Shown here: positions 46,187 through 61,483 of the stretch, in pieces
Layout of the letters: every line of letters begins with the position of its first letter
How positions within the stretch are numbered: the first letter of the stretch is position 1
Assembly (NCBI GenBank): GCA_041660605.1
Contig: JBAZWB010000001.1
Location: 686,503 to 750,502, forward strand
Source of the DNA: Patescibacteria group bacterium
Lineage (GTDB): Bacteria; Patescibacteriota; Patescibacteriia; UBA10025; JAHIVO01
DNA: 64,000 bases
Reading direction: 5' to 3'
Notes under the pieces: model-generated
The model's database searches: none
Told to the model about the DNA's origin: nothing
Seen by the model: the letters and a program-made list of their open reading frames with translations, nothing else
Translations under genes and position numbers: made by a program

Positions 46187-46648
46187 TCAATTACGAAAAG
46201 TCCAATATTTATTGCCAAAATAATTGCTGAAAAGCACAATGCCAATTGCCACGGCTTTGGCAAAAAAATCAACGTTATCGCCGAAATATTTTACTGCACC
46301 ACTGTGTTCAACCACGATATAAACAATGCCTAAATTTAAAAAATAGTTGACCAGACTGACGATAAAAAATTTTACAGATTCGGACTTGGCCTTGCCGCTG
46401 TCACCTTTTTTAAAAGTCCAGAATTTATTCAGAAAAAAATTATTGACAATCGCCAAAAAAACGCTGGTAGCGGTGGCGTAAATATAATATACACCGAAAA
46501 CCCGCGTTAATAGCGCGTAAGAACTGAAATCAACCAAAGTACCGGCCACACCGACTATTCCGAATTTTAAAAATTCAACAACGCTTGGATGTTCTCGTAA
46601 ATAACTTATTTTTTCCAGCCGGTTTTTTAGTGTCATATTGCTGATCAT
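46187..46648 (-). CDS. GtrA-family membrane protein (polyprenyl-phosphate-sugar translocation-associated)
   Basis: 153 aa, 4 TM. FLKFGIVGVAGTLVDFSSYALLTRVFGVYY matches the GtrA N-terminal signature. Its start ATG overlaps the subtilase stop (ATGA). Confidence 0.75.
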   Translation of the reverse strand: MISNMTLKNRLEKISYLREHPSVVEFLKFGIVGVAGTLVDFSSYALLTRVFGVYYIYATATSVFLAIVNNFFLNKFWTFKKGDSGKAKSESVKFFIVSLVNYFLNLGIVYIVVEHSGAVKYFGDNVDFFAKAVAIGIVLFSNYFGNKYWTFRN

Positions 46649-48831
46649 CTGATAGCTGCCACGTTAACGCCTCCGCGGAATGATTCGGCATAGGCGAAGA
46701 ACTGGGAAAGCAAATTGCCGCTTTCACCGAATATTCTGACGTGAGGTCCGCCGGTATAGCCGGCACCGGCGATTATTTCATCAGTGCCGTCTCCGTTGAC
46801 ATCCCCCGCTGCCACGTTAACGCCTCCGCGGAATGATTCGGCATAGGCGAAGAACTGGGAAAGCAAATTGCCGCTGGCTCCGAATATTCTGACGTGAGGT
46901 CCGCCGGTATAGCCGGCACCGGCGATTATTTCATCAGTGCCGTCTCCGTTGACATCCCCCGCTGCCACGTTAACGCCTCCGCGGAATGATTCGGCATAGG
47001 CGAAGAACTGGGATTGACGCACTCCGCTATAATTAAATACCCTGACATGGGGACCACCGGTATTTCCTGCCCCGGTTACAATTTCATCTACTCCATTGTT
47101 ATCAAAATCGCCAACAGCCACGTTAACGCCTCCGCGGAATGATTCGGCATAGGCGAAGAACTGGGAAAGCAAATTGCCATGCTGATCGAATATCCGGACA
47201 TGCGGACCGCCGCCGTTACCAGCACCGGCGATGATTTCATCAGTGCCGTCTCCGTTGACATCTCCTGACGCAACATTAACGCCTCCGCGGAATGATTCGG
47301 CATAGGCGAAGAACTGGGAAAGCAAATTGCCATGCTGGTCGAATATCCGGACATGCGGACCGCCGCCATTGCCGGCACCGGCGATGATTTCATCAGTACC
47401 GTCTCCGTTGACATCCCCCGCTGCCACGTTAACGCCCCCGCGGAATGATTCGGCATAGGCGAAAAATTGTGATTGCACTGATCCTTGCGTATTTATAATC
47501 CGCACATGCGGTCCGCCATTTTGGCCGGCTCCGGTGATTATATTCATGGTATCAGCCAACACCACCGGCTGGGCAAAAACATTTCCAATATTTAAACGAC
47601 CACTGCCTAGTTGGGTGGCTAAAGGTTCGTCAGCACTGAATGGATCGGAATTATGCAATAACAAATTTTTAATTTCAGAAATAGAAAGCGTAGGATTACT
47701 GGCCTTAATAAGCGCCGCCGCACCGGCCACCATTGGAGTGGCCATAGAAGTGCCAGACCAGCCGCTCAAATATGGATTATCAAGTCCGTTTACGGGATCG
47801 TAAAAAGAAGTACTGATAAAATTTTCACCCGGTGCGGAAATATCAATGCAATCCGATCCGTAATTTGAAGCCACACTTATTTGCCCGCCGGATTCAACCA
47901 GTAATCGGGTATCTTCCTGATCGGTGCCACCGACGCCAATAACGTTTTCATCGCAAACTGGATAACGCGGGCTGCTATTGAGATTAATATTATTATTGCC
48001 CGCAGCGGCAAAAACCAAAATTCCAGCCTGTGTGGCCTCATTAATAGCGTTACTTAACAAAACATCCTGATTATTCCCAACAAAGCTTAAATTAATAAAA
48101 TCAGCGCCATTGGCGATGGCATAATCAATACCCTGATAAATATCCCCGGTATCTCCCACGCCGGCGCCGTCCAGAACCCTGATTGGCATAAGTTTAACCG
48201 ACCAATTCATGCCGGCTATCCCGGCGTTATTATTTCCAACAGCGCCAATCACGCCGGCTATCGCCGTGCCGTGATTAATGCCAGAGGTATTCCACCCTGT
48301 ATCGTATTTCGGAAGCGGATCCGGCACTGAACCGATAAAATCCCAGCCATGATAATCATCAATAAAACCATTGTTATCGTCATCAATATTATTATCAGGT
48401 AGCTCTCCGGCGTTAGTCCAAATATTAGCGCTCAAATCCGGATGGTTAATATCAATTCCGGTATCTAAAACCGCCACCACTACTTCATTGCTTCCGGTTG
48501 TTGTATCCCAGGCACCTGGGGCATTCACTTTGCTCAAATACCATTGGGAACCAAACAATGGGTCATTTGGCTCAGCCGCTGCTTGATAGTCATAATTCGG
48601 CTCAACAAAATCAACATTCGGCTGGTTTTTCCAGTCTTTAATTACTTGGGCAACATTTTCACCTGGCAATAAATTGATCTGATGAATTTTATCGTCTTTT
48701 TTTAATTTAATAATTACACTATGGGCATGGCTGGCATTCTCCCCAACGGCTGACGCCGAAAAAGGTGCCGTCAACCACAGACAAAAAAACACCATCGCCA
48801 GATACTTAATATATTTAGTAATCTTATTCAT
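46645..48831 (-). CDS. secreted subtilisin-like serine protease (S8) fused to a C-terminal 7-blade FG-GAP repeat beta-propeller
   Basis: 728 aa. Signal peptide. Catalytic triad motifs VAVLDTGID (Asp), HGTAIAGVIG (His) and GTSMATPMVAGAAALI (Ser). The C-terminal ~330 aa are 6.5 copies of a 51-aa unit FFAYAESFRGGVNVAAGDVNGDGTDEIIAGAGNGGGPHVRIFDQHGNLLSQ (FG-x-GDxNGDGxxD = FG-GAP). Confidence 0.85.
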   Translation of the reverse strand: MNKITKYIKYLAMVFFCLWLTAPFSASAVGENASHAHSVIIKLKKDDKIHQINLLPGENVAQVIKDWKNQPNVDFVEPNYDYQAAAEPNDPLFGSQWYLSKVNAPGAWDTTTGSNEVVVAVLDTGIDINHPDLSANIWTNAGELPDNNIDDDNNGFIDDYHGWDFIGSVPDPLPKYDTGWNTSGINHGTAIAGVIGAVGNNNAGIAGMNWSVKLMPIRVLDGAGVGDTGDIYQGIDYAIANGADFINLSFVGNNQDVLLSNAINEATQAGILVFAAAGNNNINLNSSPRYPVCDENVIGVGGTDQEDTRLLVESGGQISVASNYGSDCIDISAPGENFISTSFYDPVNGLDNPYLSGWSGTSMATPMVAGAAALIKASNPTLSISEIKNLLLHNSDPFSADEPLATQLGSGRLNIGNVFAQPVVLADTMNIITGAGQNGGPHVRIINTQGSVQSQFFAYAESFRGGVNVAAGDVNGDGTDEIIAGAGNGGGPHVRIFDQHGNLLSQFFAYAESFRGGVNVASGDVNGDGTDEIIAGAGNGGGPHVRIFDQHGNLLSQFFAYAESFRGGVNVAVGDFDNNGVDEIVTGAGNTGGPHVRVFNYSGVRQSQFFAYAESFRGGVNVAAGDVNGDGTDEIIAGAGYTGGPHVRIFGASGNLLSQFFAYAESFRGGVNVAAGDVNGDGTDEIIAGAGYTGGPHVRIFGESGNLLSQFFAYAESFRGGVNVAAIR
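46650..47530. repeat. tandem array of ~6 near-identical 153-bp repeats encoding the FG-GAP blades
   Basis: The strings gctgccacgttaacgcctccgcggaatgattcggcataggcgaagaactgggaaagcaaattgcc and ccggtatagccggcaccggcgat...tcatcagtgccgtctccgttgacatc recur with ~153-bp period. Confidence 0.8.
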
Positions 48832-53368: not shown

Positions 53369-53490
53369 AGAAAATAACGATGAATTCTGCGAAACGGATT
53401 ATATCAGCGACGACTTGCCCCGCATACTGCGACACTGAGCGAAGTCGAAGAGGAGCTGTTGTGCGGGGTGCAAAAATTTCGAATTTTATT
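53341..53490. repeat. perfect 22-bp direct repeat (tgcaaaaatttcgaattttatt) at 53341-53362 and 53469-53490, flanking a 106-bp segment
   Basis: Copy 1 encodes lepA codons 3-9 (minus strand). Copy 2, followed by cat, encodes a second start-like MNKIRNFC and overlaps the murJ stop. The intervening segment contains the CCCCGCA...TGCGGGG inverted repeat. Confidence 0.7.
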
Positions 53491-55201
53491 CATTATTTTT
53501 TTCCGGTTGGATATTTTTTGATTTTTTGTTGTTAAATAATTGATGCCTGGCTTTTAACAGCCAATTTACTATTATTTTTACTTCTTCACATTTGAATAAT
53601 AAGGCTAAGACTAAATAGCTGCAGATGCCGAAAATGCCTGCTCCCAAGCCCTGGATAAAAATACCAACGAAAGTCTGCATATTTACTCCCAACGCCAAAA
53701 AATATTTCGCGGCAATAACCAGCGCACCCATCATGGCAGAGATTACTACTATTTTCAGGGTAGAGATGATTATCCTCTTATCGTCCAAATTGCCTACTTT
53801 TGAGCGCAGGAATACAAGCAGCAATATCATATTTATAAAACTGGAGATCGTAAAAGATAAAGCCAGGCCCATGACGCCCAAAAATCTGGTAAATATCAAA
53901 GCGCCGATGATATTCATCGCCACGCTGACCAGAGCGACTTTTACCGGAGTTTTTGTATCCTGCCAGGCATAAAAAGAACGCGCTAATAAGGGAATGACGC
54001 TCTGGGCAAATAATGATAAAGAAAATATGCCCAGCGTTTGTGCGGTCAGATAAGTATCATTCCAGTCAAAAGCGCCAGTGCCCAGGATTACCCTGACCAG
54101 CTGGGCGCGCAGTAAAAGTATCAGTACGGAAATGGGAATTACCACGAATAAAATACGGCGAAAACTTTCTGAAAAGTGCTCAATAAAAACTTGGTTCTTT
54201 TTCTGCACAAAGGCTTCACTTAAAAAAGGAAAAGAGGCCACGGCCACGGACACTCCGAATACATTGATCGGAAAGCTTTGCAGATTATTGGCAAATGTAA
54301 AAATTGCCACCGAACCGGCGGCCAACGTGGAACCAATGATAACGCTGATCAGCTGATCAACCTGCCCGACTGCCAGACCAAAAGTCCTCGGCAGCATCAG
54401 CTTGCCGATATTTCTGACACCGGCGTGCTTGGTATCAAAAACAAATTTGTAACGAAAGCCCAATTTAATTGCGCCTGGCAGCTGGATTAGCAAATGAAGC
54501 AGCGAGCCAAGAACTACGCCATAGGCTAAACCATAAATTCCGTAATATTTTACAAAAACACTGATGCCCAGGATTAATCCAATATTATACATGACCGGCG
54601 CAAAGGCAAAATTGATGTACCTTTTGAATGAATTCAATACTCCGGTTAAAATATTGCTGATGCCGAAAAATACGATGGAGACAAGCATGATTCTGGTCAT
54701 TTTTACGGTAACAATCTGCTTCTGCATATCAAAACCTGGGGCAATCAGCGGGATGATTTGCGGAGCGAAAATAAAAAACAGGATTCCGAAAAAAACGAGT
54801 CCTATGAGTAAAATATTCAGTAATGAATTTACCAGATACCAAACTTCATTTTTTGCTTCCGGATTTTCCTTGGCTTTTTGTATGTACTGAATGAATATCG
54901 GGATGAATGCGGCGGAAAGCGCACCCAATACCAGCACATTAAAAACTAAATCCGGTATTCGAAAGGCGGCATAATAAATATCCAGCTCATTGCCCGCCCC
55001 GAATTTTGCTGCCAGCAACCTGTCCCGTATCAATCCTAGGAATCTGCTGCCAACAGATGAAGCGGCTATAATAATTGCACCGCCAGTTAAGGTGGTGGTT
55101 AATTTAAACCATATTTTTGACCACATAATGTGAAAATTATACCAACTTTTTGCGAAAAAAACAAGCCCACTATATATAAAAAAGTGTGTCGTAAAATGCA
55201 T
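53486..55201 (-). CDS. murJ: lipid II flippase MurJ (MviN)
   Basis: 571 aa. SRFLGLIRDRLLAAKFGAGNELDIYYAAFRIPDLVFN is the canonical MurJ N-terminus, plus 14 TM. The true start may be the internal Met at ~55126 (MWSKIW...). Confidence 0.85.
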   Translation of the reverse strand: MHFTTHFFIYSGLVFFAKSWYNFHIMWSKIWFKLTTTLTGGAIIIAASSVGSRFLGLIRDRLLAAKFGAGNELDIYYAAFRIPDLVFNVLVLGALSAAFIPIFIQYIQKAKENPEAKNEVWYLVNSLLNILLIGLVFFGILFFIFAPQIIPLIAPGFDMQKQIVTVKMTRIMLVSIVFFGISNILTGVLNSFKRYINFAFAPVMYNIGLILGISVFVKYYGIYGLAYGVVLGSLLHLLIQLPGAIKLGFRYKFVFDTKHAGVRNIGKLMLPRTFGLAVGQVDQLISVIIGSTLAAGSVAIFTFANNLQSFPINVFGVSVAVASFPFLSEAFVQKKNQVFIEHFSESFRRILFVVIPISVLILLLRAQLVRVILGTGAFDWNDTYLTAQTLGIFSLSLFAQSVIPLLARSFYAWQDTKTPVKVALVSVAMNIIGALIFTRFLGVMGLALSFTISSFINMILLLVFLRSKVGNLDDKRIIISTLKIVVISAMMGALVIAAKYFLALGVNMQTFVGIFIQGLGAGIFGICSYLVLALLFKCEEVKIIVNWLLKARHQLFNNKKSKNIQPEKNNE

Positions 55202-55299
55202 TAATAATTATTTTCAAATATTAAATCATCGCGAACCTTTTAATGCTTAAAAGTAAGCTTCAACTAAAAAAAATAAATCAGCATATCATTTCAACTCAC

Positions 55300-55580
55300 A
55301 CTTGTCATGGCAGCTTATGCCTGTCACCTCGACCGAAACCCCCGCCAAAGGCGGGGGCGAGTGGAGAGGTCTCTGTTATACACTATTAACGTTGTTAATT
55401 CTAAACCGAGACTTCTCCGTTCCCCCGTCAGATGACGGGGTCAGTCGAAGTGACGGACGTTATTGGATCGCAAACCACACCTAATTAACCACTTACGATT
55501 GTCATGTCGACCGAGTCATCCCGCCTGTGGCGGGAGGACGAGTGGAGACATCTCGGTTATATACCCACTCACGCTTGCCA
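55300..55580 (+). other. GC-rich structured non-coding region. It carries two copies of a ~60-nt motif, (TGTCAyyTCGACCGA-hairpin-CGAGTGGAGAnnTCTCnGTTATA) at 55322-55380 and 55501-55563, plus a third GC hairpin at 55423-55440. This is a candidate ncRNA or repeat element.
   Basis: In copy 1 versus copy 2 the stems are conserved and the loops differ: CCCCCGCC-aaa-GGCGGGGG versus CCCGCC-tgt-GGCGGG, and GAGA-gg-TCTC versus GAGA-ca-TCTC. The strand is undetermined. The track ORFs here (55302..55484 and 55463..55669) look non-coding. Confidence 0.35.
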
Positions 55581-56075
55581 TTAGGTGTCCTTTTATAAAT
55601 AAAAATGCCGAGGCTACAGGTTATAAGGTCCCGGGCCGAGGTAAACATTATATTTTACGGAAAGGATAGGAAACCACTTTTTAAAAAACGGGTTTCCTAC
55701 AATAAAAAAGCTGCCGGCTAAATATATATGGTCATGCAAATTTGTAAGTAGAAATCCTGAATAAATCCAGGATTGAGGAGAGAGATTTTACCCTGCTGAA
55801 AAGCAGAGCCCTGCTTACCAACCTGATTTCCTTAAATATTATAACCAACAGCTTTTTTATGCCAACCTATAAACACATGGTTAAATAGGTTAGCACCGCT
55901 AGGATATTCCTTGTTTTTTAGTTTGTCAAGTCTATTACCCAATCATTTCCCTTTTTCACTGCACAAGATGGTCTTATGCCGCGGAAAAGGGAGGCAGGCG
56001 ACAAATTGCTTATAAGCGACTGTCTTATACCTGCCTTTTGAACAATACTATTGCTCGACAATGCCGAGATAGATA

Positions 56076-56582
56076 CTACGTTTGAGGTGAGAAAGTTTGA
56101 GGTAAGCACGTTTCACGTTTTAACGTTTCCGGAGAAATACGAACAATAAATACTTGAAAGTTTTCATCGTCAAATAATAGATTAACATTTTCAAGCATAT
56201 CACTCGAAATTCCGGCTAAAAGCCAACTATCAAGCCAATACTCGCGAAACTTGAATTCCACAGTCGGAACAATCTTCGTGCTGTCCCGAACCATCCGAAT
56301 CTTTTTTTCGGGAATTAGCGTAACCACATAAACATCTGGTTTCGGTGACCACGTGAAGCGAATGCTCTTTTCGGTAGATACCTTCCCAGAGGCACTCCCA
56401 CATCCGAAAAAGAATCCTCCTTCAAATGAACCGTTGATAGAACTTTCACTGGGAAAAACGCGCAAATAATGTTCACCGAAAACTCCAGTAGGTTCAAGCA
56501 ATTCTCGATGAGTTGCACAACCAGTGATATTGATAGCCGCCATAATCACTATCAGCAATGCACACGCGTACCATTTCTTCAT
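56076..56582 (-). CDS. lipoprotein of unknown function
   Basis: 168 aa. Signal peptide plus lipobox (LIVIMAAINITGC). GGAGAA RBS 6 nt upstream. G+C-richer than the surrounding genome. Confidence 0.55.
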   Translation of the reverse strand: MKKWYACALLIVIMAAINITGCATHRELLEPTGVFGEHYLRVFPSESSINGSFEGGFFFGCGSASGKVSTEKSIRFTWSPKPDVYVVTLIPEKKIRMVRDSTKIVPTVEFKFREYWLDSWLLAGISSDMLENVNLLFDDENFQVFIVRISPETLKRETCLPQTFSPQT

Positions 56583-56636
56583 GATATTCTCCTGAAATAG
56601 GGTTAATGTTATGAACTATTTTTCTTTTATCTCAAT
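56583..56636 (-). promoter_or_regulatory. sigma70-like promoter (copy 1 of a duplicated element): TTGAGA-17-ATAACA
   Basis: Minus-strand read: GATTGAGATAAAAGAAAAATAGTTCATAACAT..AGGAGAATATC-ATG. 20 of these nt are identical to copy 2 at 56885-56952. Confidence 0.35.
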
Positions 56637-56795
56637 CCGCCGTAGGTGTACTGGGATAAAAGAAAAGTTTCTCTTTTTCAACCCACGATAATTGATTTTC
56701 ATGGTCTGAAAAAGTGATGGGAGCCGAGAGAATAAAATGTTCATGAAGAACAAATGTTCTTTTGGCTCCCGAATCATCACTTTCGTCGACTGGTG

Positions 56796-56879
56796 TCAGC
56801 CGTTAATTAAGGCACAGATCATGGCGATGTTGCACGCCACTGATACTGTCCACAGCGCTGCCAGAGCCCGCTTACTCAT
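56796..56879 (-). CDS. 27-aa hydrophobic small ORF (MSKRALAALWTVSVACNIAMICALING)
   Basis: Found manually; below the track cut-off. Preceded by GGAGGGACAAGGAG RBS and by promoter copy 2, with the same spacing as the lipoprotein gene. Confidence 0.3.
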   Translation of the reverse strand: MSKRALAALWTVSVACNIAMICALING

Positions 56880-56884
56880 GTTGA

Positions 56885-56952
56885 CTCCTTGTCCCTCCTG
56901 GGACGGTTAAGTGATGATTGATTATTTATGTACCATTTTTCTTTTATCTCAA
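56885..56952 (-). promoter_or_regulatory. sigma70-like promoter (copy 2): TTGAGA-17-ATAAAT, upstream of the 27-aa sORF
   Basis: Minus-strand read: GATTGAGATAAAAGAAAAATGGTACATAAAT. The shared 20-mer atttttcttttatctcaatc is on the plus strand at 56618 and 56932. Confidence 0.35.
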
Positions 56953-57042
56953 TCGAGTATAACTCCATACCCGGCTGGCATAAAGGCAGGAAATAAATTT
57001 CCCTTTTTCAGTTCTGAAAAAAATTTTCAATCCTGGAAAAGA

Positions 57043-57077
57043 GTGAGAAGAATATTACTGTTGTAATATCTTCTCAC
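57043..57077 (-). terminator. rho-independent terminator downstream of the FHA gene
   Basis: 15-bp stem GTGAGAAGA(A)TATTAC / GTAATATCTTCTCAC with one bulge and a TGTT loop. Followed on the minus strand by TCTTTTCC. Confidence 0.4.
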
Positions 57078-57258
57078 ATAGCTGTTCAGTTCCACGGAGC
57101 CACCGTGATCGGCATTTCGATCCATGATAAGGGCTACCGTATTTGACCCTTGCGATTACTTAGAGCATCCTGCCTCCACCACAGGTTCATTATATGTCCA
57201 GGTCACTACGTGTCCTGGGGTTAATTCGACTTCTTTTTATCAGTCGACGGCCGCCCAA

Positions 57259-57552
57259 TTAAGCTGCAACCGCTATCTGATAATTGGCGATCTCAATCAC
57301 GTTGCCAACAGCCAGAACGTGATCAATGATCTGCTTATCATTCACAAAAGTACCATTTTTTGAATTCTGATCACGTATCATGTAATCAGTACCATTCCAG
57401 ACGATGACCGCATGCAGTCGGCTGACACCGCGCTGACTGAGCACCAGCCCGCACGTATCTAATCGGCCTACCGAGAACTCCTCATTAGGCCCTAGCGTAG
57501 GCAGCACAACCTTATCTAAGGTTATGCCACCGAGGTTTACAACAAGTCGCAT
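57259..57552 (-). CDS. FHA-domain protein (stand-alone forkhead-associated domain)
   Basis: The start was refined to the Met preceded by GGAGG (MRLVVNLGG...). FHA signature: SVGRLDTCGLVLSQRGVSRLHAVIVWNGTDYMIRDQNSKNGTFVND. Confidence 0.65.
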   Translation of the reverse strand: MRLVVNLGGITLDKVVLPTLGPNEEFSVGRLDTCGLVLSQRGVSRLHAVIVWNGTDYMIRDQNSKNGTFVNDKQIIDHVLAVGNVIEIANYQIAVAA

Positions 57553-57633
57553 GTTGCCTCCAAATATTCTTGGTTTAAATCTTGATTTAATCTCCTGAAT
57601 GTTCAAACTGCAGCAGATTGTGATTGGGGAATA

Positions 57634-57882
57634 TTAAGCCAATTCCATCTCCGTTCTAATACATCCCAGTATCAGGTAAAAGTACATGACACCGAAGATG
57701 ACATAGAGAGATGGCACAGCTATTAACCATACCAGTGTTAATGATCCGGCCGCGACATAGTAAATCCCATCTTGATAAAGGGAATATTTAAACGCATACC
57801 AGATTCCCTCACCATACTTATGGTATCCTACTGCCAGCCCAATAACGGCAAATAGCAGGATGTGCGGTAGAATGAAGTTCAT
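57634..57882 (-). CDS. small 2-TM membrane protein upstream of the FHA gene
   Basis: The start was refined to MNFILPHILLF..., which has GGAGG 6 nt upstream. Two hydrophobic helices. 82 aa. Confidence 0.45.
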   Translation of the reverse strand: MNFILPHILLFAVIGLAVGYHKYGEGIWYAFKYSLYQDGIYYVAAGSLTLVWLIAVPSLYVIFGVMYFYLILGCIRTEMELA

Positions 57883-59131
57883 TTGAAACCTCCGTAAACA
57901 AGTCAATGATCTAGCAATTTTCTCTTTTTTCAGCAGCCAATGGTACTTGACCATTACCCGCTGGAAAAAAGAGGCGGAAAATTATTAATATATTTACTCC
58001 TAAAAACAATTAACTCATTTTTTCAAAGAAAGAGGAAGAGGCTAAGTGGCACGGTTTTGACTACATGGAAGCAGTCACCGGACCGGGTATCAATGGCAGT
58101 TAACTCTTAGTTCGCACCAAGCGCTATTGCCATTATATGATATCCTTTTGAATAGCCCTCCTTTTCTCTCTTTGAAAATTTTTAATTTACATTACTTTCT
58201 TTTAATCATCACGAACCTTGGGTTATACCGCGCCCGCTTCGAATGCGAAGCAGTCGGGCGGGATGTCCTAAACTAAATGATGTTTACTGACAATTTAAAA
58301 TAATTTATGCCGAGTCATCGACTTCACGTCGGGACGAGGTATTCCTTTACGGAAGGATGAGTGATGAGAAGGAAACCCTTGGTTGCCTTCTCATAAACTT
58401 CCCTTATTCAGCAGACAATAACACGGGGCTATTGCCCGCTGGAGAAGGGAGGACAGCTACTGAGTTGCAACTGTCCCTTGGTGTGCGGCTAAAAGCAAGT
58501 AACGAGTAAGATGAGGTGATAAAGATCCATTTTTGGCGCGGGAAGAAGGATTTGCACCCGCCTCTGAGCTCTAAACGAGTTCAGTCCGTATTGTTAATCA
58601 GTAGTGTATACTGATCACGCAACGGCTTTACAGCCATTCTCTCCTCCGGTATGAATAACCGCGGTGTAAGTAGCTTCCCGCATTTTTCTAAGAAAGGAGA
58701 AGGAGGTTAGTAGGTTCGCCTTTGGCCATATAAATATGGCCGACGGACCAGATATCAGAATTAGTAATATTCTAGTCGAAACCAGAAACATGCTAATCCT
58801 ATTGATATCTCTTAACTAATCCCCCCTTTTCCTTTCTCCAAAATTTTCAAGGTAGAAACTGGATAAACAAAAAACGGACTTTTCCTTGAGAAGAGCTCGT
58901 TTTTTGCTTGAGTTATTGGTTGTTGTAATAATAAACCTTATCAAAACCACCACCCCTGCCACATGATCTTTCTTAAGATTTATTATTTGTTACTCTCTCC
59001 TCAAAGAGTATTTTTGCTGATTTAAAATGAACAAGAAATATTGAATTTAACTGATAATAATATACCCCCAGACATTTTCTGTCAAGGGGAGATATCCACA
59101 TTATATTAATTTTTGGCTAAAGTTAGACTAA

Positions 59132-61483
59132 TTACTTCTTTATTAACACACCAAAATATTTATCTGTAACTAAATCCGTGATAAACGACAGATTCTGACC
59201 GTCAGCGCTGACGGTATCAGGACACCAGGCGATCTTATATTTTTCAGGCAAAATTACTGTCCCGGCGTAAAAATCATTCAATACACCAGGCTGTTTCTGA
59301 ATCAGCAGGCTGTAATCATCGGTATTATTAAATAAACCTCCTGGCAAAACGGTAAAAGGCAGCGTATAGGTAATGCTGGCTTCAGCCGCCTGCCCAGGAT
59401 CAACCGTCATCCAGTTGCCAAAAACCGTCTTGCCAAATTCCGTAGTCAATCGGGTATTATTTGCTTCATCCATGATAGCGTCTTTTTCAATTGATTCCAG
59501 GTCCGAATCAGGCGTGGCGTCTGTATCCGGCAGCTTAAAGCGAAAAGAAGGGATATCGGTAAAACCCTTGGCTTCAATTAATTTACTGCCATAGGGGACA
59601 TAAAACCTGACGTATGAAACATTGGCCTGGCCTTCCCAGCGATCACGCGGATTTCCATTATGCACTCTCTTCAATGTAACAGTATCGGTGACCGTGCCAT
59701 CGTCTCCGATCCTAATGTCATGTTTAATGAATTGATCGACTACCTGATCAGTTTTCCCTCCACCGATATTAGTGCTGACAACGTTCAGATAATCCTTGGC
59801 AGTGCTTTTTACTCCCCCGTCCCAGTTTAAATCAGTGATTTTTTTCTGCAGTTCTTCATCATTGAAATAGAGCAGAAAATCCTTGGAATTTATGGAATCG
59901 CCAAAAGCTGATACTACCTTTATTATATTATCCTTATCCGTCTGGAATATCTTGTCTAGTAGTATTGGCAATAAATCACCGATGAACTTTTTCGGCTTAT
60001 TTTCTTCCCTGTCATACTGAACTTCCGCCCAGTATTGGGCTTCACGCACGAAATTGTCCGAGGTGACCGTCACTCCGTAATCTTTCATTTCTATCGGACC
60101 AGTTATGTCCAGCAATTTTTCAACGACTGTCGGCGTCAGTGAAATCACGCCGTCAACAGTCGCCCTGCCCGCTCTTTCGTAGAACCATTCAATCTTCCTG
60201 GCTGACGTAGGAAAATCAACGAACCAATTGGCATCCTGAATATTCCAGTGCGGATTTACCAGCCACAATGGCTTCGGAGCGACAATCTTCTCCTGGAGCT
60301 GCCCGGCAATATCATACACTCCCCCTCCGGGGACTTCCAGATTGGTAATTTTACCCTGATTGATGTCCACTAACGCAATCGAGCCGATAAATCCGCCGGT
60401 CGGCCTCAACTCCCGGTTATTCTGAAAAATCAGCAGATAACGCATTGATTTATTATGGCCCAGCACTTCCAGCATCATATCTGCCAGAGATACATAGCTG
60501 TCTGAGCTTTTTTGAATGGCTGGCAGCAACGTCTGAATCTTGCTAATTTCCGGCTGATACTCCTCGGGGATATCTTTTATCCTGACGTTCTTGATACTTT
60601 CAGCAGCCGCGCTGATTTCCTGCTGCAGAGGGGCTATTTTTTCTCGCACTAATAGTAAATATTGTATTAATGATGATTCATTATCTCCGCCCAGAACGTT
60701 GAGGTCGATATTGGAGATATTGCCTAATAGCTCGGTTATTACCGAACCGGCCTGCGATAATTGGCTGCCGGCAGCCAACAGGTATTGCGCGCTCTTTGCT
60801 TTGTTAGGGACGATCTTTGTCAGCTGTATAACGAACGAACCGACTTCATCCAGCTGCTGCTGCGCTGAAACAAAATAATTCGTTGCCTGACTGAACTGCG
60901 CCTGCGCTGTTTCGTAATCAGATGAGGTTATTGAATTGCCGGCTGCCATCAGGCTCTTATAGGCTTCCGTCGAAATGCCAAGCACCTTGCCTTTAGCGGC
61001 ACTGGCGCTCTTGTAAAATCCAAATAAAAAAATCGGCAGGACAATGATAACGCAAGCCATGATGAAATAAGCCAGCTTCCTGTTCCAGCCCGGCGCCAGT
61101 TGGAATTTCAATAATTCCAGTTTTTCTTCCGTCACTTTATTCTCTCTTTTTGGTTTTTTTTGCACCGGCGGGGGTATGGGTGCGGGTTTTTCTTCCGGTC
61201 TGGGCAGCTGGCTGGCTGGCGGCTGAAAACTCCTGGAAACAATCACTTTTTCCGCTGCTTCACGCCTGCCGGTATCTTGCTTTTCAGTTTTTTTAGGCAG
61301 TTTGAAATTCCCGAAAAATTTCTGAAAAGATAATCCTTTTTTTTCTTTTATTTCCTCGGGTTTTTCAGTTTCAGCAAATTTGCGCAAATCAATGATATTG
61401 GCTTTCGGGACATGCAGATTTTTTGGGTTTGAATTATTTCCCAGAATATTGAATTTATTCGTGTTTATATTATGCCGTTTCAT
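59132..61483 (-). CDS. DUF4012-domain protein. It has an N-terminal cytoplasmic region, a Pro-rich linker and one TM helix, followed by a large extracytoplasmic domain.
   Basis: 783 aa. RYLLIFQNNRELRPTGGFIGSIALVD and the surrounding region match the DUF4012 signature common in CPR/Gram-positive genomes. Linker PPASQLPRPEEKPAPIPPPVQKKPKRE. TM helix AYFIMACVIIVLPIFLFGFY. Confidence 0.7.
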   Translation of the reverse strand: MKRHNINTNKFNILGNNSNPKNLHVPKANIIDLRKFAETEKPEEIKEKKGLSFQKFFGNFKLPKKTEKQDTGRREAAEKVIVSRSFQPPASQLPRPEEKPAPIPPPVQKKPKRENKVTEEKLELLKFQLAPGWNRKLAYFIMACVIIVLPIFLFGFYKSASAAKGKVLGISTEAYKSLMAAGNSITSSDYETAQAQFSQATNYFVSAQQQLDEVGSFVIQLTKIVPNKAKSAQYLLAAGSQLSQAGSVITELLGNISNIDLNVLGGDNESSLIQYLLLVREKIAPLQQEISAAAESIKNVRIKDIPEEYQPEISKIQTLLPAIQKSSDSYVSLADMMLEVLGHNKSMRYLLIFQNNRELRPTGGFIGSIALVDINQGKITNLEVPGGGVYDIAGQLQEKIVAPKPLWLVNPHWNIQDANWFVDFPTSARKIEWFYERAGRATVDGVISLTPTVVEKLLDITGPIEMKDYGVTVTSDNFVREAQYWAEVQYDREENKPKKFIGDLLPILLDKIFQTDKDNIIKVVSAFGDSINSKDFLLYFNDEELQKKITDLNWDGGVKSTAKDYLNVVSTNIGGGKTDQVVDQFIKHDIRIGDDGTVTDTVTLKRVHNGNPRDRWEGQANVSYVRFYVPYGSKLIEAKGFTDIPSFRFKLPDTDATPDSDLESIEKDAIMDEANNTRLTTEFGKTVFGNWMTVDPGQAAEASITYTLPFTVLPGGLFNNTDDYSLLIQKQPGVLNDFYAGTVILPEKYKIAWCPDTVSADGQNLSFITDLVTDKYFGVLIKK

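Follow-up and report, generated by a model that had tools for sequence, protein, structure and literature searches.

Three oriented, imperfect hairpin repeats found in an intergenic region of a Patescibacteria group bacterium probably belong, judging from sequence comparison, to the superfamily of repetitive extragenic palindromes (REPs) tagged by TGTC or CGTC and to the Ssn-related motifs (SRMs), a known family of which they would form a new subtype. The analysis covered a stretch of 64 kb of contig JBAZWB010000001.1, hereafter called the window. The repeats form a cluster at positions 55290-55585, within a gap of 874 bp located between murJ (53486-55201) and an open reading frame (ORF) of 168 amino acids (56076-56582), both genes being carried co-directionally by the minus strand. 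The units are filed as a member or subtype of a known family because of their tag, stem and tail and of the gene link displayed by their relatives, even though two formal published definitions, discussed below, do not accommodate them. The initial annotation of this region had described two direct copies sharing TGTCAyyTCGACCGA ... CGAGTGGAGAnnTCTCnGTTATA, which are indeed present where it placed them, and had considered a new small RNA family, REP-like elements or a pair of protein-binding sites. The last two options agree with the present assignment: the units fall within the TGTC/CGTC-tagged superfamily, their relatives flank Ssn-type GIY-YIG genes, and Ssn binds hairpins of this nature as single-stranded DNA (ssDNA) (PMC11893778).

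The 3' block of the two direct copies, CGAGTGGAGAnnTCTCnGTTATA, displays two matches in the 64 kb as compared to 0.01 expected. When the 5' block GTCAYNTCGACNGA was searched on both strands, a third exact match was obtained at 55441-55454 on the minus strand, and reading that strand permitted the recognition of a third full unit, c2, in inverted orientation (Table 1). The initial annotation had missed this inverted copy and listed its centre as a separate third GC hairpin, CCCCGTC-agat-GACGGGG. A structure-aware scan of the window retrieves exactly the three units c1, c2 and c3, where random sequence of equal composition would give 0.065. The first two are convergent, with approximately 35 bp between their tails, the last two are divergent, and the copies are 35-46 nt apart.

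Each unit is composed of a Y-GTC tag, a 5-bp stem of the form A-Y-N-T-C / G-A-N-R-T, a tandem GA/GA mismatch, a S:S' pair, a variable distal part and a CTC tail. The distal part ranges from 0 to 75 nt across the family and carries a GC hairpin of 6-8 bp in the window, where the inner part measures 31-38 nt. In the window, the 5-bp stem is perfectly paired in every copy, and the GA/GA mismatch, the tag and the tail are present throughout, with variable stem pairs that are CC/GG in c1, CT/AG in c2 and TG/CA in c3. G-T pairs are seen in the sense of the tagged strand (CCG/TGG in c1 and c3, CTG/CGG in c2). Despite their common flanks, the stems of c1 and c3 are set apart by a double compensatory change (CC/GG versus TG/CA), which argues for a continued pairing constraint in this lineage.

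Structural evidence was provided by covariation across the family. Public collections were scanned with a search pattern that left the four tested bases free, making the test non-circular. Both variable stem positions are Watson-Crick in 140 of the 145 family members, as compared to 66 under independence of the two dinucleotides, and the pair types are distributed as TT/AA (87), TC/GA (42), TG/CA (8), CC/GG (2) and CT/AG (1). The initial annotation had observed that stems were kept while loops changed. This is correct for the central GC hairpin, whose loop reads aaa in c1 and tgt in c3; the supposed loop bases of GGAGA-gg-TCTC and GGAGA-ca-TCTC are, on the contrary, those that pair with the YN of TGTCA-YN-TC in the test above. 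Covariation of conserved stems was thus recognized in spirit, with the 3' block attributed to the wrong helix, and the GAGA-nn-TCTC mini-hairpin was rejected in favor of the long-range stem. A second helix, ACCGAG/CTCGGT, which would have formed a pseudoknot, was also rejected as the N of CTC-N-GTT varies without compensation.

A wider catalogue of 181 unique units was used for the inner part. Its 5' GA was required by the scan; its 3' GA is found in 178 of the 181 units. Among these 178, with GA at both ends, positions 3 and -3 of the inner part form C:G in 129 cases, G:C in 41, A:T in 2 and other combinations in 6. This covariation favors, family-wide, an inner-helix register composed of the tandem GA/GA and the S:S' pair, and the alternative register (CCG/YGG with a GA bulge) may apply to the long GACCG...CGG forms. 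In the family catalogue, GTC is preceded by T in 70% of cases and by C in 23% (TGTC in c1 and c3, CGTC in c2), and the tail is C in 97%, T in 95% and C in 88%, reading CTC in each of the window copies. No conservation is observed past this tail in the family catalogue. The GTTATA reported as shared by the two direct copies does occur in both c1 and c3 and is therefore to be regarded as a local trait of these two units.

Nearest-neighbour folding of the units as ssDNA was less uniform. The c1 fold reaches -14.9 kcal/mol (z score -3.2), and its minimum free energy (MFE) structure uses an alternative outer pairing in place of ACCTC/GAGGT. The z score of c2 is only -1.0. In the MFE structure of c3 (z score -2.65), the stem is formed together with the CC/GG pairs and the inner hairpin, and c3 is the only one of the three for which the family structure is recovered in this way. 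The structural case is therefore carried by covariation and not by folding energy.

Scans of public collections returned members of the repeat family on more than 130 contigs, which represent numerous bacterial groups. These include 10 genome loci, among them loci of Peptoniphilus, Flavobacteriales, Saprospiraceae, Bacteroidales, Defluviicoccus and Acidobacteriota; in addition, at least 119 stretches with family members were retrieved by the metagenome scan and 2 loci only by the scan of viral contigs. BLAST comparison of the canonical unit to plasmid and phage records gave no convincing match and, considering also the low number of viral loci, a phage or plasmid origin was rejected. A literature search using the literal sequences returned unrelated primer matches only. 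The c2 sub-type, GACTG...AACGGA, is also present in family locus L008. A contig from a related strain (L012) is identical to the window over the whole intergenic region and is therefore uninformative on presence or absence of the cluster.

Neighboring family members form 42 convergent, 20 divergent and 11 tandem pairs, the convergent pairs with gaps of 8-50 nt being dominant, and extra 5' halves are found no more than 44 nt upstream in 31 of 239 copies (13%). The window matches this arrangement, since c1 and c2 are convergent, c2 and c3 are divergent and c1 is accompanied by a duplication of TGTCATG at 55303-55309, rightly reported in the initial annotation as a local 5' duplication in copy 1. 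Both 5' fragments of the cluster share the upstream box ACTYACRNT, followed by TGTCATG in the first and by the degenerate TTGCCATT (55575-55582) in the second.

Several variations on this arrangement were encountered in the course of the scans. Many full family units are preceded by tandem arrays in which only the 5' half (the tag, the stem arm and the first portion of the inner part) recurs every 19-26 nt or so, as in L003 (509-581), L007 (306-392), L026 (9846-9930), L055 (3423-3510) and L140 (1253-1321), and c1 is alike; such arrays could arise by slippage, abortive copying or nuclease-linked rejoining. Two near-identical contigs carrying the same Ssn homolog (L134 1852-1930 and L135 1852-1878) differ by an indel of 52 nt corresponding to exactly one repeat unit, which is a repeat copy-number polymorphism between close relatives. 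A long variant of the family retains the same tag, the ATCTC stem and the tail around an inner part of 71-74 nt, GAGCGGAGG...TATGGG...ATTGAAACGC.GAGTCGA, is always preceded by CCTGCCGCCACC and recurs in many unrelated metagenome contigs (L077 926-1210, L095 314-1220, L113 ~7975, L120 ~5288, L027 ~7623, L015 ~209 and L107 ~1085). It may represent a distinct structured cargo.

Translations of repeats of this type (RFLDYARND, SFRAERGIS) occur beside small GIY-YIG genes; this was taken as a lead only and was then tested. A strict GIY-YIG regular expression applied to the first 10 loci returned nothing, and tblastn later found such genes in other loci. Starting from the motif, 4 loci were found by tblastn in which a GIY-YIG ORF, a gene of about 90 amino acids, is bracketed by inverted copies of the repeat. 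Each of them has a plus-strand unit upstream of the ATG and an inverted unit overlapping or following the stop codon. Two of these loci (L064 and L081) are homologous and do not represent independent insertions. The Pfam GIY-YIG profile matches the L081 and L032 proteins with E-values of 3e-17 and 5e-16, respectively.

The association was also examined in the reverse direction by fetching the contigs of six homologs of the L032 protein, representing five genomic contexts as P0080 and P0097 share their flanking genes. A unit is located upstream of the gene in all six, at a distance of 13-32 nt from the ATG in four of the contexts and of 133 nt in P0012, and an inverted unit lies at or just past the stop codon, again in six out of six. 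These units are composed of Y-GTC, a 5-bp stem, GA...GA and CT, with stems of other types, among them ATTCT/AGAAT, ATCCT/AGGAT, ATGTT/AACAT and ATTCC/GGAAT. Comparison of the L032 protein with the SsnA ortholog of Neisseria gonorrhoeae gives 45.9% identity (E 2e-17), and the gene of this ortholog is itself surrounded by canonical NTS repeats, CGTCATTCCCGC.CAGGCGGGAATC.

Two published descriptions are relevant to these units. The CGTC-tagged REPs reported by Di Nocera and colleagues in 2013 bear a tag that is often TGTC and may also be CCTC, as well as a 3-nt tail, form dimers in opposite orientation and occur in five phyla; their stems of 8-9 bp begin with A-T and T-A pairs, their loops measure 4-5 nt, and they have no dedicated transposase (PMC3733652). 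The window units resemble the classes CGTC-1 to -4, which include dRS3 of Neisseria and RPE-4/RPE-6 of Rickettsia (PMC3733652), by the unpaired terminal CGTC/TGTC, the unpaired 3-nt tail, the intergenic location and the frequent opposite-orientation dimers, illustrated in the window by the convergent c1/c2 and the divergent c2/c3. They differ by a stem of 5 bp followed by GA/GA and by a CTC tail, instead of the classical stem of 8-9 bp and CCA-like tail. The second description, by Chenal and colleagues in 2025, concerns the NTS of Neisseria and the SRMs, which flank genes of single-domain GIY-YIG proteins (Ssn, cd10448) (PMC11893778). SsnA binds the tagged strand as ssDNA only, not double-stranded DNA (dsDNA), RNA or the reverse strand, and cleaves it a few nucleotides 5' of the tag; cleavage is governed by the three bases that precede the palindrome (the GTC triplet), and the C following the palindrome is the most critical for binding (PMC11893778). 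The Ssn system of Neisseria restricts transforming ssDNA, and an IS-like SRM-ssn-SRM layout was noted by the authors (PMC11893778). The likeness to SRM and NTS extends to the unpaired HGTC tag 5' of the stem, a stem starting with A-Y, the maintained pairing of the hairpin, the conserved C opening a short tail, the inverted copies that flank ssn genes in the case of their relatives, and the intergenic, clustered and cross-phylum occurrence of the repeats. The differences are the 5 uninterrupted bp followed by tandem GA/GA, the distal inserts of 0-75 nt and the host, a metagenome-assembled genome of Patescibacteria. Since Ssn specificity depends on sequence as well as on structure (PMC11893778), recognition of the window subtype by an Ssn protein is suggested by the genomic association only.

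The function that may be proposed on this basis can be briefly summarized as follows. Each unit would be an oriented imperfect hairpin forming when the DNA is single-stranded. By analogy with the Neisseria enzyme, a single-domain Ssn GIY-YIG nuclease would bind the tagged ssDNA strand and nick it a few nucleotides upstream of the tag, and would be inactive on dsDNA, RNA and the complementary strand; the lack of RNA binding was shown for the Neisseria enzyme only, in vitro. Repeats and ssn genes may spread, or be maintained, jointly in the form of SRM-ssn-SRM units. The window units would then be, or have been, nuclease substrates whenever the locus is single-stranded, for example during replication, repair or DNA uptake, with the convergent c1/c2 pair presumably derived from a SRM-ssn-SRM unit that has lost its gene and c3 an additional copy divergent with c2.

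A number of observations weigh against the assignment to the Ssn-related repeats. No ssn or GIY-YIG gene or remnant was detected in the 64-kb window by tblastn and profile search, and no GIY-YIG protein is listed among the called genes within 10 kb past either of its ends. The cluster is the only one in the approximately 84 kb examined, that is the window and 10 kb on each side, or about 9% of a contig of 960 kb, and the genome is not visibly rich in SRMs. The missing gene and the lack of further units also speak against a system that is active at present. The published SRM pattern, HGTCWYN(0-2)YYVSBRHN(0-5)WNVSBRGN(0-2)RNCYNB, has 0 matches in the window; it finds 8 sites in 922 kb of family loci and 6 NTS around the N. 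gonorrhoeae ssnA ortholog, and misses the window units because of their GA mismatch and long insert. The window units likewise lack the 8-9 bp stem, the A-T/T-A first pairs and the 4-5 nt loop defining the CGTC REPs: the stems of c1 and c2 begin with A-T followed by C-G (read as A-C, not as the near-universal A-T), and, owing to their distal hairpin, the units exceed in length the classical elements with 4-5 nt loops. Finally, the support gained from ssDNA folding is modest (z scores -3.2, -1.0 and -2.7 for c1, c2 and c3).

The most plausible alternative, in our opinion an unlikely one, is that the cluster consists of orphan relics, namely Ssn-associated repeats decaying in a genome devoid of the cognate nuclease and exerting at most incidental effects such as structure at the 3' or 5' end of an mRNA or a fortuitous -35 box. 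The lack of an ssn gene in the window and within 10 kb of its ends, the single cluster in about 84 kb, the weak folding of c2 and the two truncated 5' fragments adjoining full copies would all be accounted for in this manner. The retention of a perfect 5-bp stem, GA/GA, tag and tail in all three copies points in the opposite direction, the double compensatory change between c1 and c3 is unexpected under neutral decay, and the inspected part amounts to about 9% of the contig. A structured RNA, as favored by the initial annotation, is less probable still. It would be either a small RNA family or a cis element stabilizing, terminating or regulating the transcript on the murJ side, and is not mutually exclusive with a role of the DNA. 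Helices preserved by covariation and G-T (G-U) pairs in the tagged-strand sense would suit it, as would the position of the cluster between co-directional genes, where Di Nocera et al. argue that many REPs are transcribed (PMC3733652); G-T pairs, on the other hand, form in ssDNA as well. The units occur in both orientations 35-46 nt apart, so that no single transcript would contain all copies in the sense orientation, and the cluster displays no terminator-like site. Throughout the family, the associated enzyme is a DNA nuclease, and no RNA binding was observed for SsnA (PMC11893778). The Rfam check called for by the initial annotation was performed and gave 0 matches at gathering thresholds over the 64-kb window; permissive scans of 54900-56300 (E up to 10) and 55560-59200 returned only miRNA-type noise attributable to long hairpins. 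The notion of selection on RNA structure, and of a new structured RNA, is not supported.

Other elements based on ssDNA hairpins were compared as well. A derivation from GTAG-type REP/REPIN or from IS200/IS605 palindromes mobilized by a Y1 (HUH) transposase (RAYT/TnpA) appears very improbable. GTAG REP/REPIN/BIME elements (PMC3116915, PMC3333891) are also short tagged extragenic palindromes arranged in inverted doublets and BIME-like clusters, probably acted upon as ssDNA and flanking a single-copy nuclease or transposase gene, and the subterminal hairpins of IS200/IS605 resemble the repeats of the present family by their ssDNA nature, the small nuclease cutting at a distance and the gene located between hairpins. 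The tag of the window units is nevertheless Y-GTC and not GTAG, the bracketed genes encode GIY-YIG proteins and not HUH Y1 transposases, and PF01797 (Y1 transposase) is not listed for the called genes around the locus. REPs are usually species-specific, in contrast to the Ssn-linked core, which is nearly identical across phyla. In IS200/IS605 elements the left end differs from the right end, and a Y1 transposase is encoded, often along with TnpB; none of these features was seen with the window units, and CGTC REPs have no transposase association according to Di Nocera et al. (PMC3733652). An integron attC-like or other ssDNA-folded recombination site is the least credible reading, to the point of being almost negligible. 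It would draw on the imperfect hairpin with unpaired positions and variable distal structure and on the GTTATA ending of c1 and c3, loosely similar to the attC core GTTRRRY, but GTTATAC and GTTATAT do not satisfy RRR and the GTT is not conserved in the family. In addition, no RYYYAAC is found at the 5' side, the units are inverted, only tens of bases apart, and bound no cassettes, and no integrase gene lies nearby. The initial dismissal of CRISPR repeat, hammerhead, attC, mini-ykkC and preQ1 is upheld. Comparison by eye to the consensus of hammerhead, hairpin-ribozyme, K-turn, group II domain V, iteron, Tn7-end and LexA-box led to their rejection as the defining elements are absent, and the RNA candidates considered in this way have no Rfam model match.

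To our knowledge, the Ssn/SRM systems represent the only known family of site-specific endonucleases acting exclusively on ssDNA. The published SRM pattern overlooks a large cross-phylum subtype with a tandem GA mismatch and an insert-accepting distal part, which is nonetheless tightly bracketed around ssn genes and, if the units of the window indeed belong to it, reaches genomes of the candidate phyla radiation (Patescibacteria). This bears on the cataloguing of Ssn/target pairs as ssDNA tools and on whether such repeats are mobile or domesticated; a false lead toward a new RNA family is also removed. For the window itself, the outcome is ordinary repeat biology. A bolder and rather doubtful proposal is that the GA-mismatch, insert-tolerant subtype is a separate Ssn recognition class and that SRM-ssn-SRM units are mobile and active, with a GIY-YIG ssDNA nuclease as their driving enzyme. 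They would then constitute an IS-like class devoid of HUH or DDE enzyme, whose footprints would be the tandem 5'-half duplications and the gene-less convergent doublets, such as those of the window. Compensated copies in a Patescibacteria genome of about 1 Mb would in that case show that a nuclease, either resident or incoming, continues to exert selection, perhaps by acting on DNA imported via a type IV pilus/competence machinery.

Table 1. Coordinates of the repeat units, the hairpins of the window and the GIY-YIG loci found from the motif (window positions unless a locus is named)
Feature	Coordinates	Strand	Description
5' partial copy	55294..55309	+	upstream box ACTCACACT, then tag and stem start TGTCATG; rest of unit missing; assigned on the basis of D2
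Full unit c1	55322..55373	+	tag TGTC 55322-55325; stem ACCTC 55326-55330 pairs with GAGGT 55366-55370; GA 55331-55332 opposite GA 55364-55365; central hairpin CCCCCGCC-aaa-GGCGGGGG 55339-55357; tail CTC 55371-55373
Full unit c2, inverted	55408..55455	-	tag CGTC 55455-55452; stem ACTTC 55451-55447 pairs with GAAGT 55415-55411; central hairpin CCCCGTC-atct-GACGGGG, plus-strand 55423-55440; tail CTC 55410-55408; sub-type GACTGA...GAACGGA
Full unit c3	55500..55554	+	tag TGTC 55500-55503; stem ATGTC 55504-55508 pairs with GACAT 55547-55551; central hairpin CCCGCC-tgt-GGCGGG 55520-55534, within GTC/GAC; tail CTC 55552-55554
Degenerate 5' partial copy	55567..55582	+	ACTCACGCTTGCCATT, immediately after c3; third D2 member
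Direct-repeat family D2			members ACTCACACTTGTCATG / ACTTACGATTGTCATG / ACTCACGCTTGCCATT
Polypyrimidine/polypurine hairpin	55945-55995	-	
Polypyrimidine/polypurine hairpin	56620-56680	-	
Polypyrimidine/polypurine hairpin	56930-57010	-	
Polypyrimidine/polypurine hairpin	57918-57985	-	
Polypyrimidine/polypurine hairpin	58400-58460	-	
GIY-YIG locus L064	608-955		
GIY-YIG locus L081	4041-4388		
GIY-YIG locus L032	223-720		
GIY-YIG locus L076			ORF truncated

The surroundings of the cluster present additional features. The reverse complement of TGTCAT (55303-55308), ATGACA, is a -35-like hexamer and is part of a promoter-like match upstream of murJ, ATGACA-17-TATGCT with TG, at 55280-55308 of the minus strand, where the match is to the consensus only. 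About 5 kb outside the low-coordinate end of the window lie genes of the type IV pilus (PilM, PilO; L146 12737-14863), mentioned as DNA-uptake context only. Within the window, positions 46655-47475, inside an ORF (46645-48831) encoding a peptidase S8/FG-GAP protein, contain internal tandem repeats of about 150 nt with 79-90% identity, and this stretch differs between the window and the ENA assembly of the same organism.

A second motif, ATGCCGAG-N(21-30)-GAGGTA, is present in 3 copies as compared to 0.01 expected, all on the plus strand (55605-55643, 56061-56104 and 58307-58341). Two of the copies run on into TTTACGGAA(A)GGAT, with a second hairpin at 55667-55699 and 58364-58392, respectively. 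As RNA, the plus-strand segment 58300-58400 folds with a z score of -5.5; it has no Rfam match, and the short ORFs starting at the ATG are not conserved. The long hairpins listed in Table 1 combine, in minus-strand reading, a polypyrimidine 5' arm with a polypurine 3' arm (CCTCYYTTYTCC ... GAAWAAGRG). They have no Rfam match, are not followed by a T-run and are located upstream of small minus-strand ORFs in a gene-poor stretch at 55.2-59.1 kb. The three that were folded as RNA (55945-55995, 57918-57985 and 58400-58460) gave z scores of -3.4 to -5.3, and the last two of these share CC-AGCGGG-YAAT...ATTG-KCTGCTGAA with compensatory changes inside.

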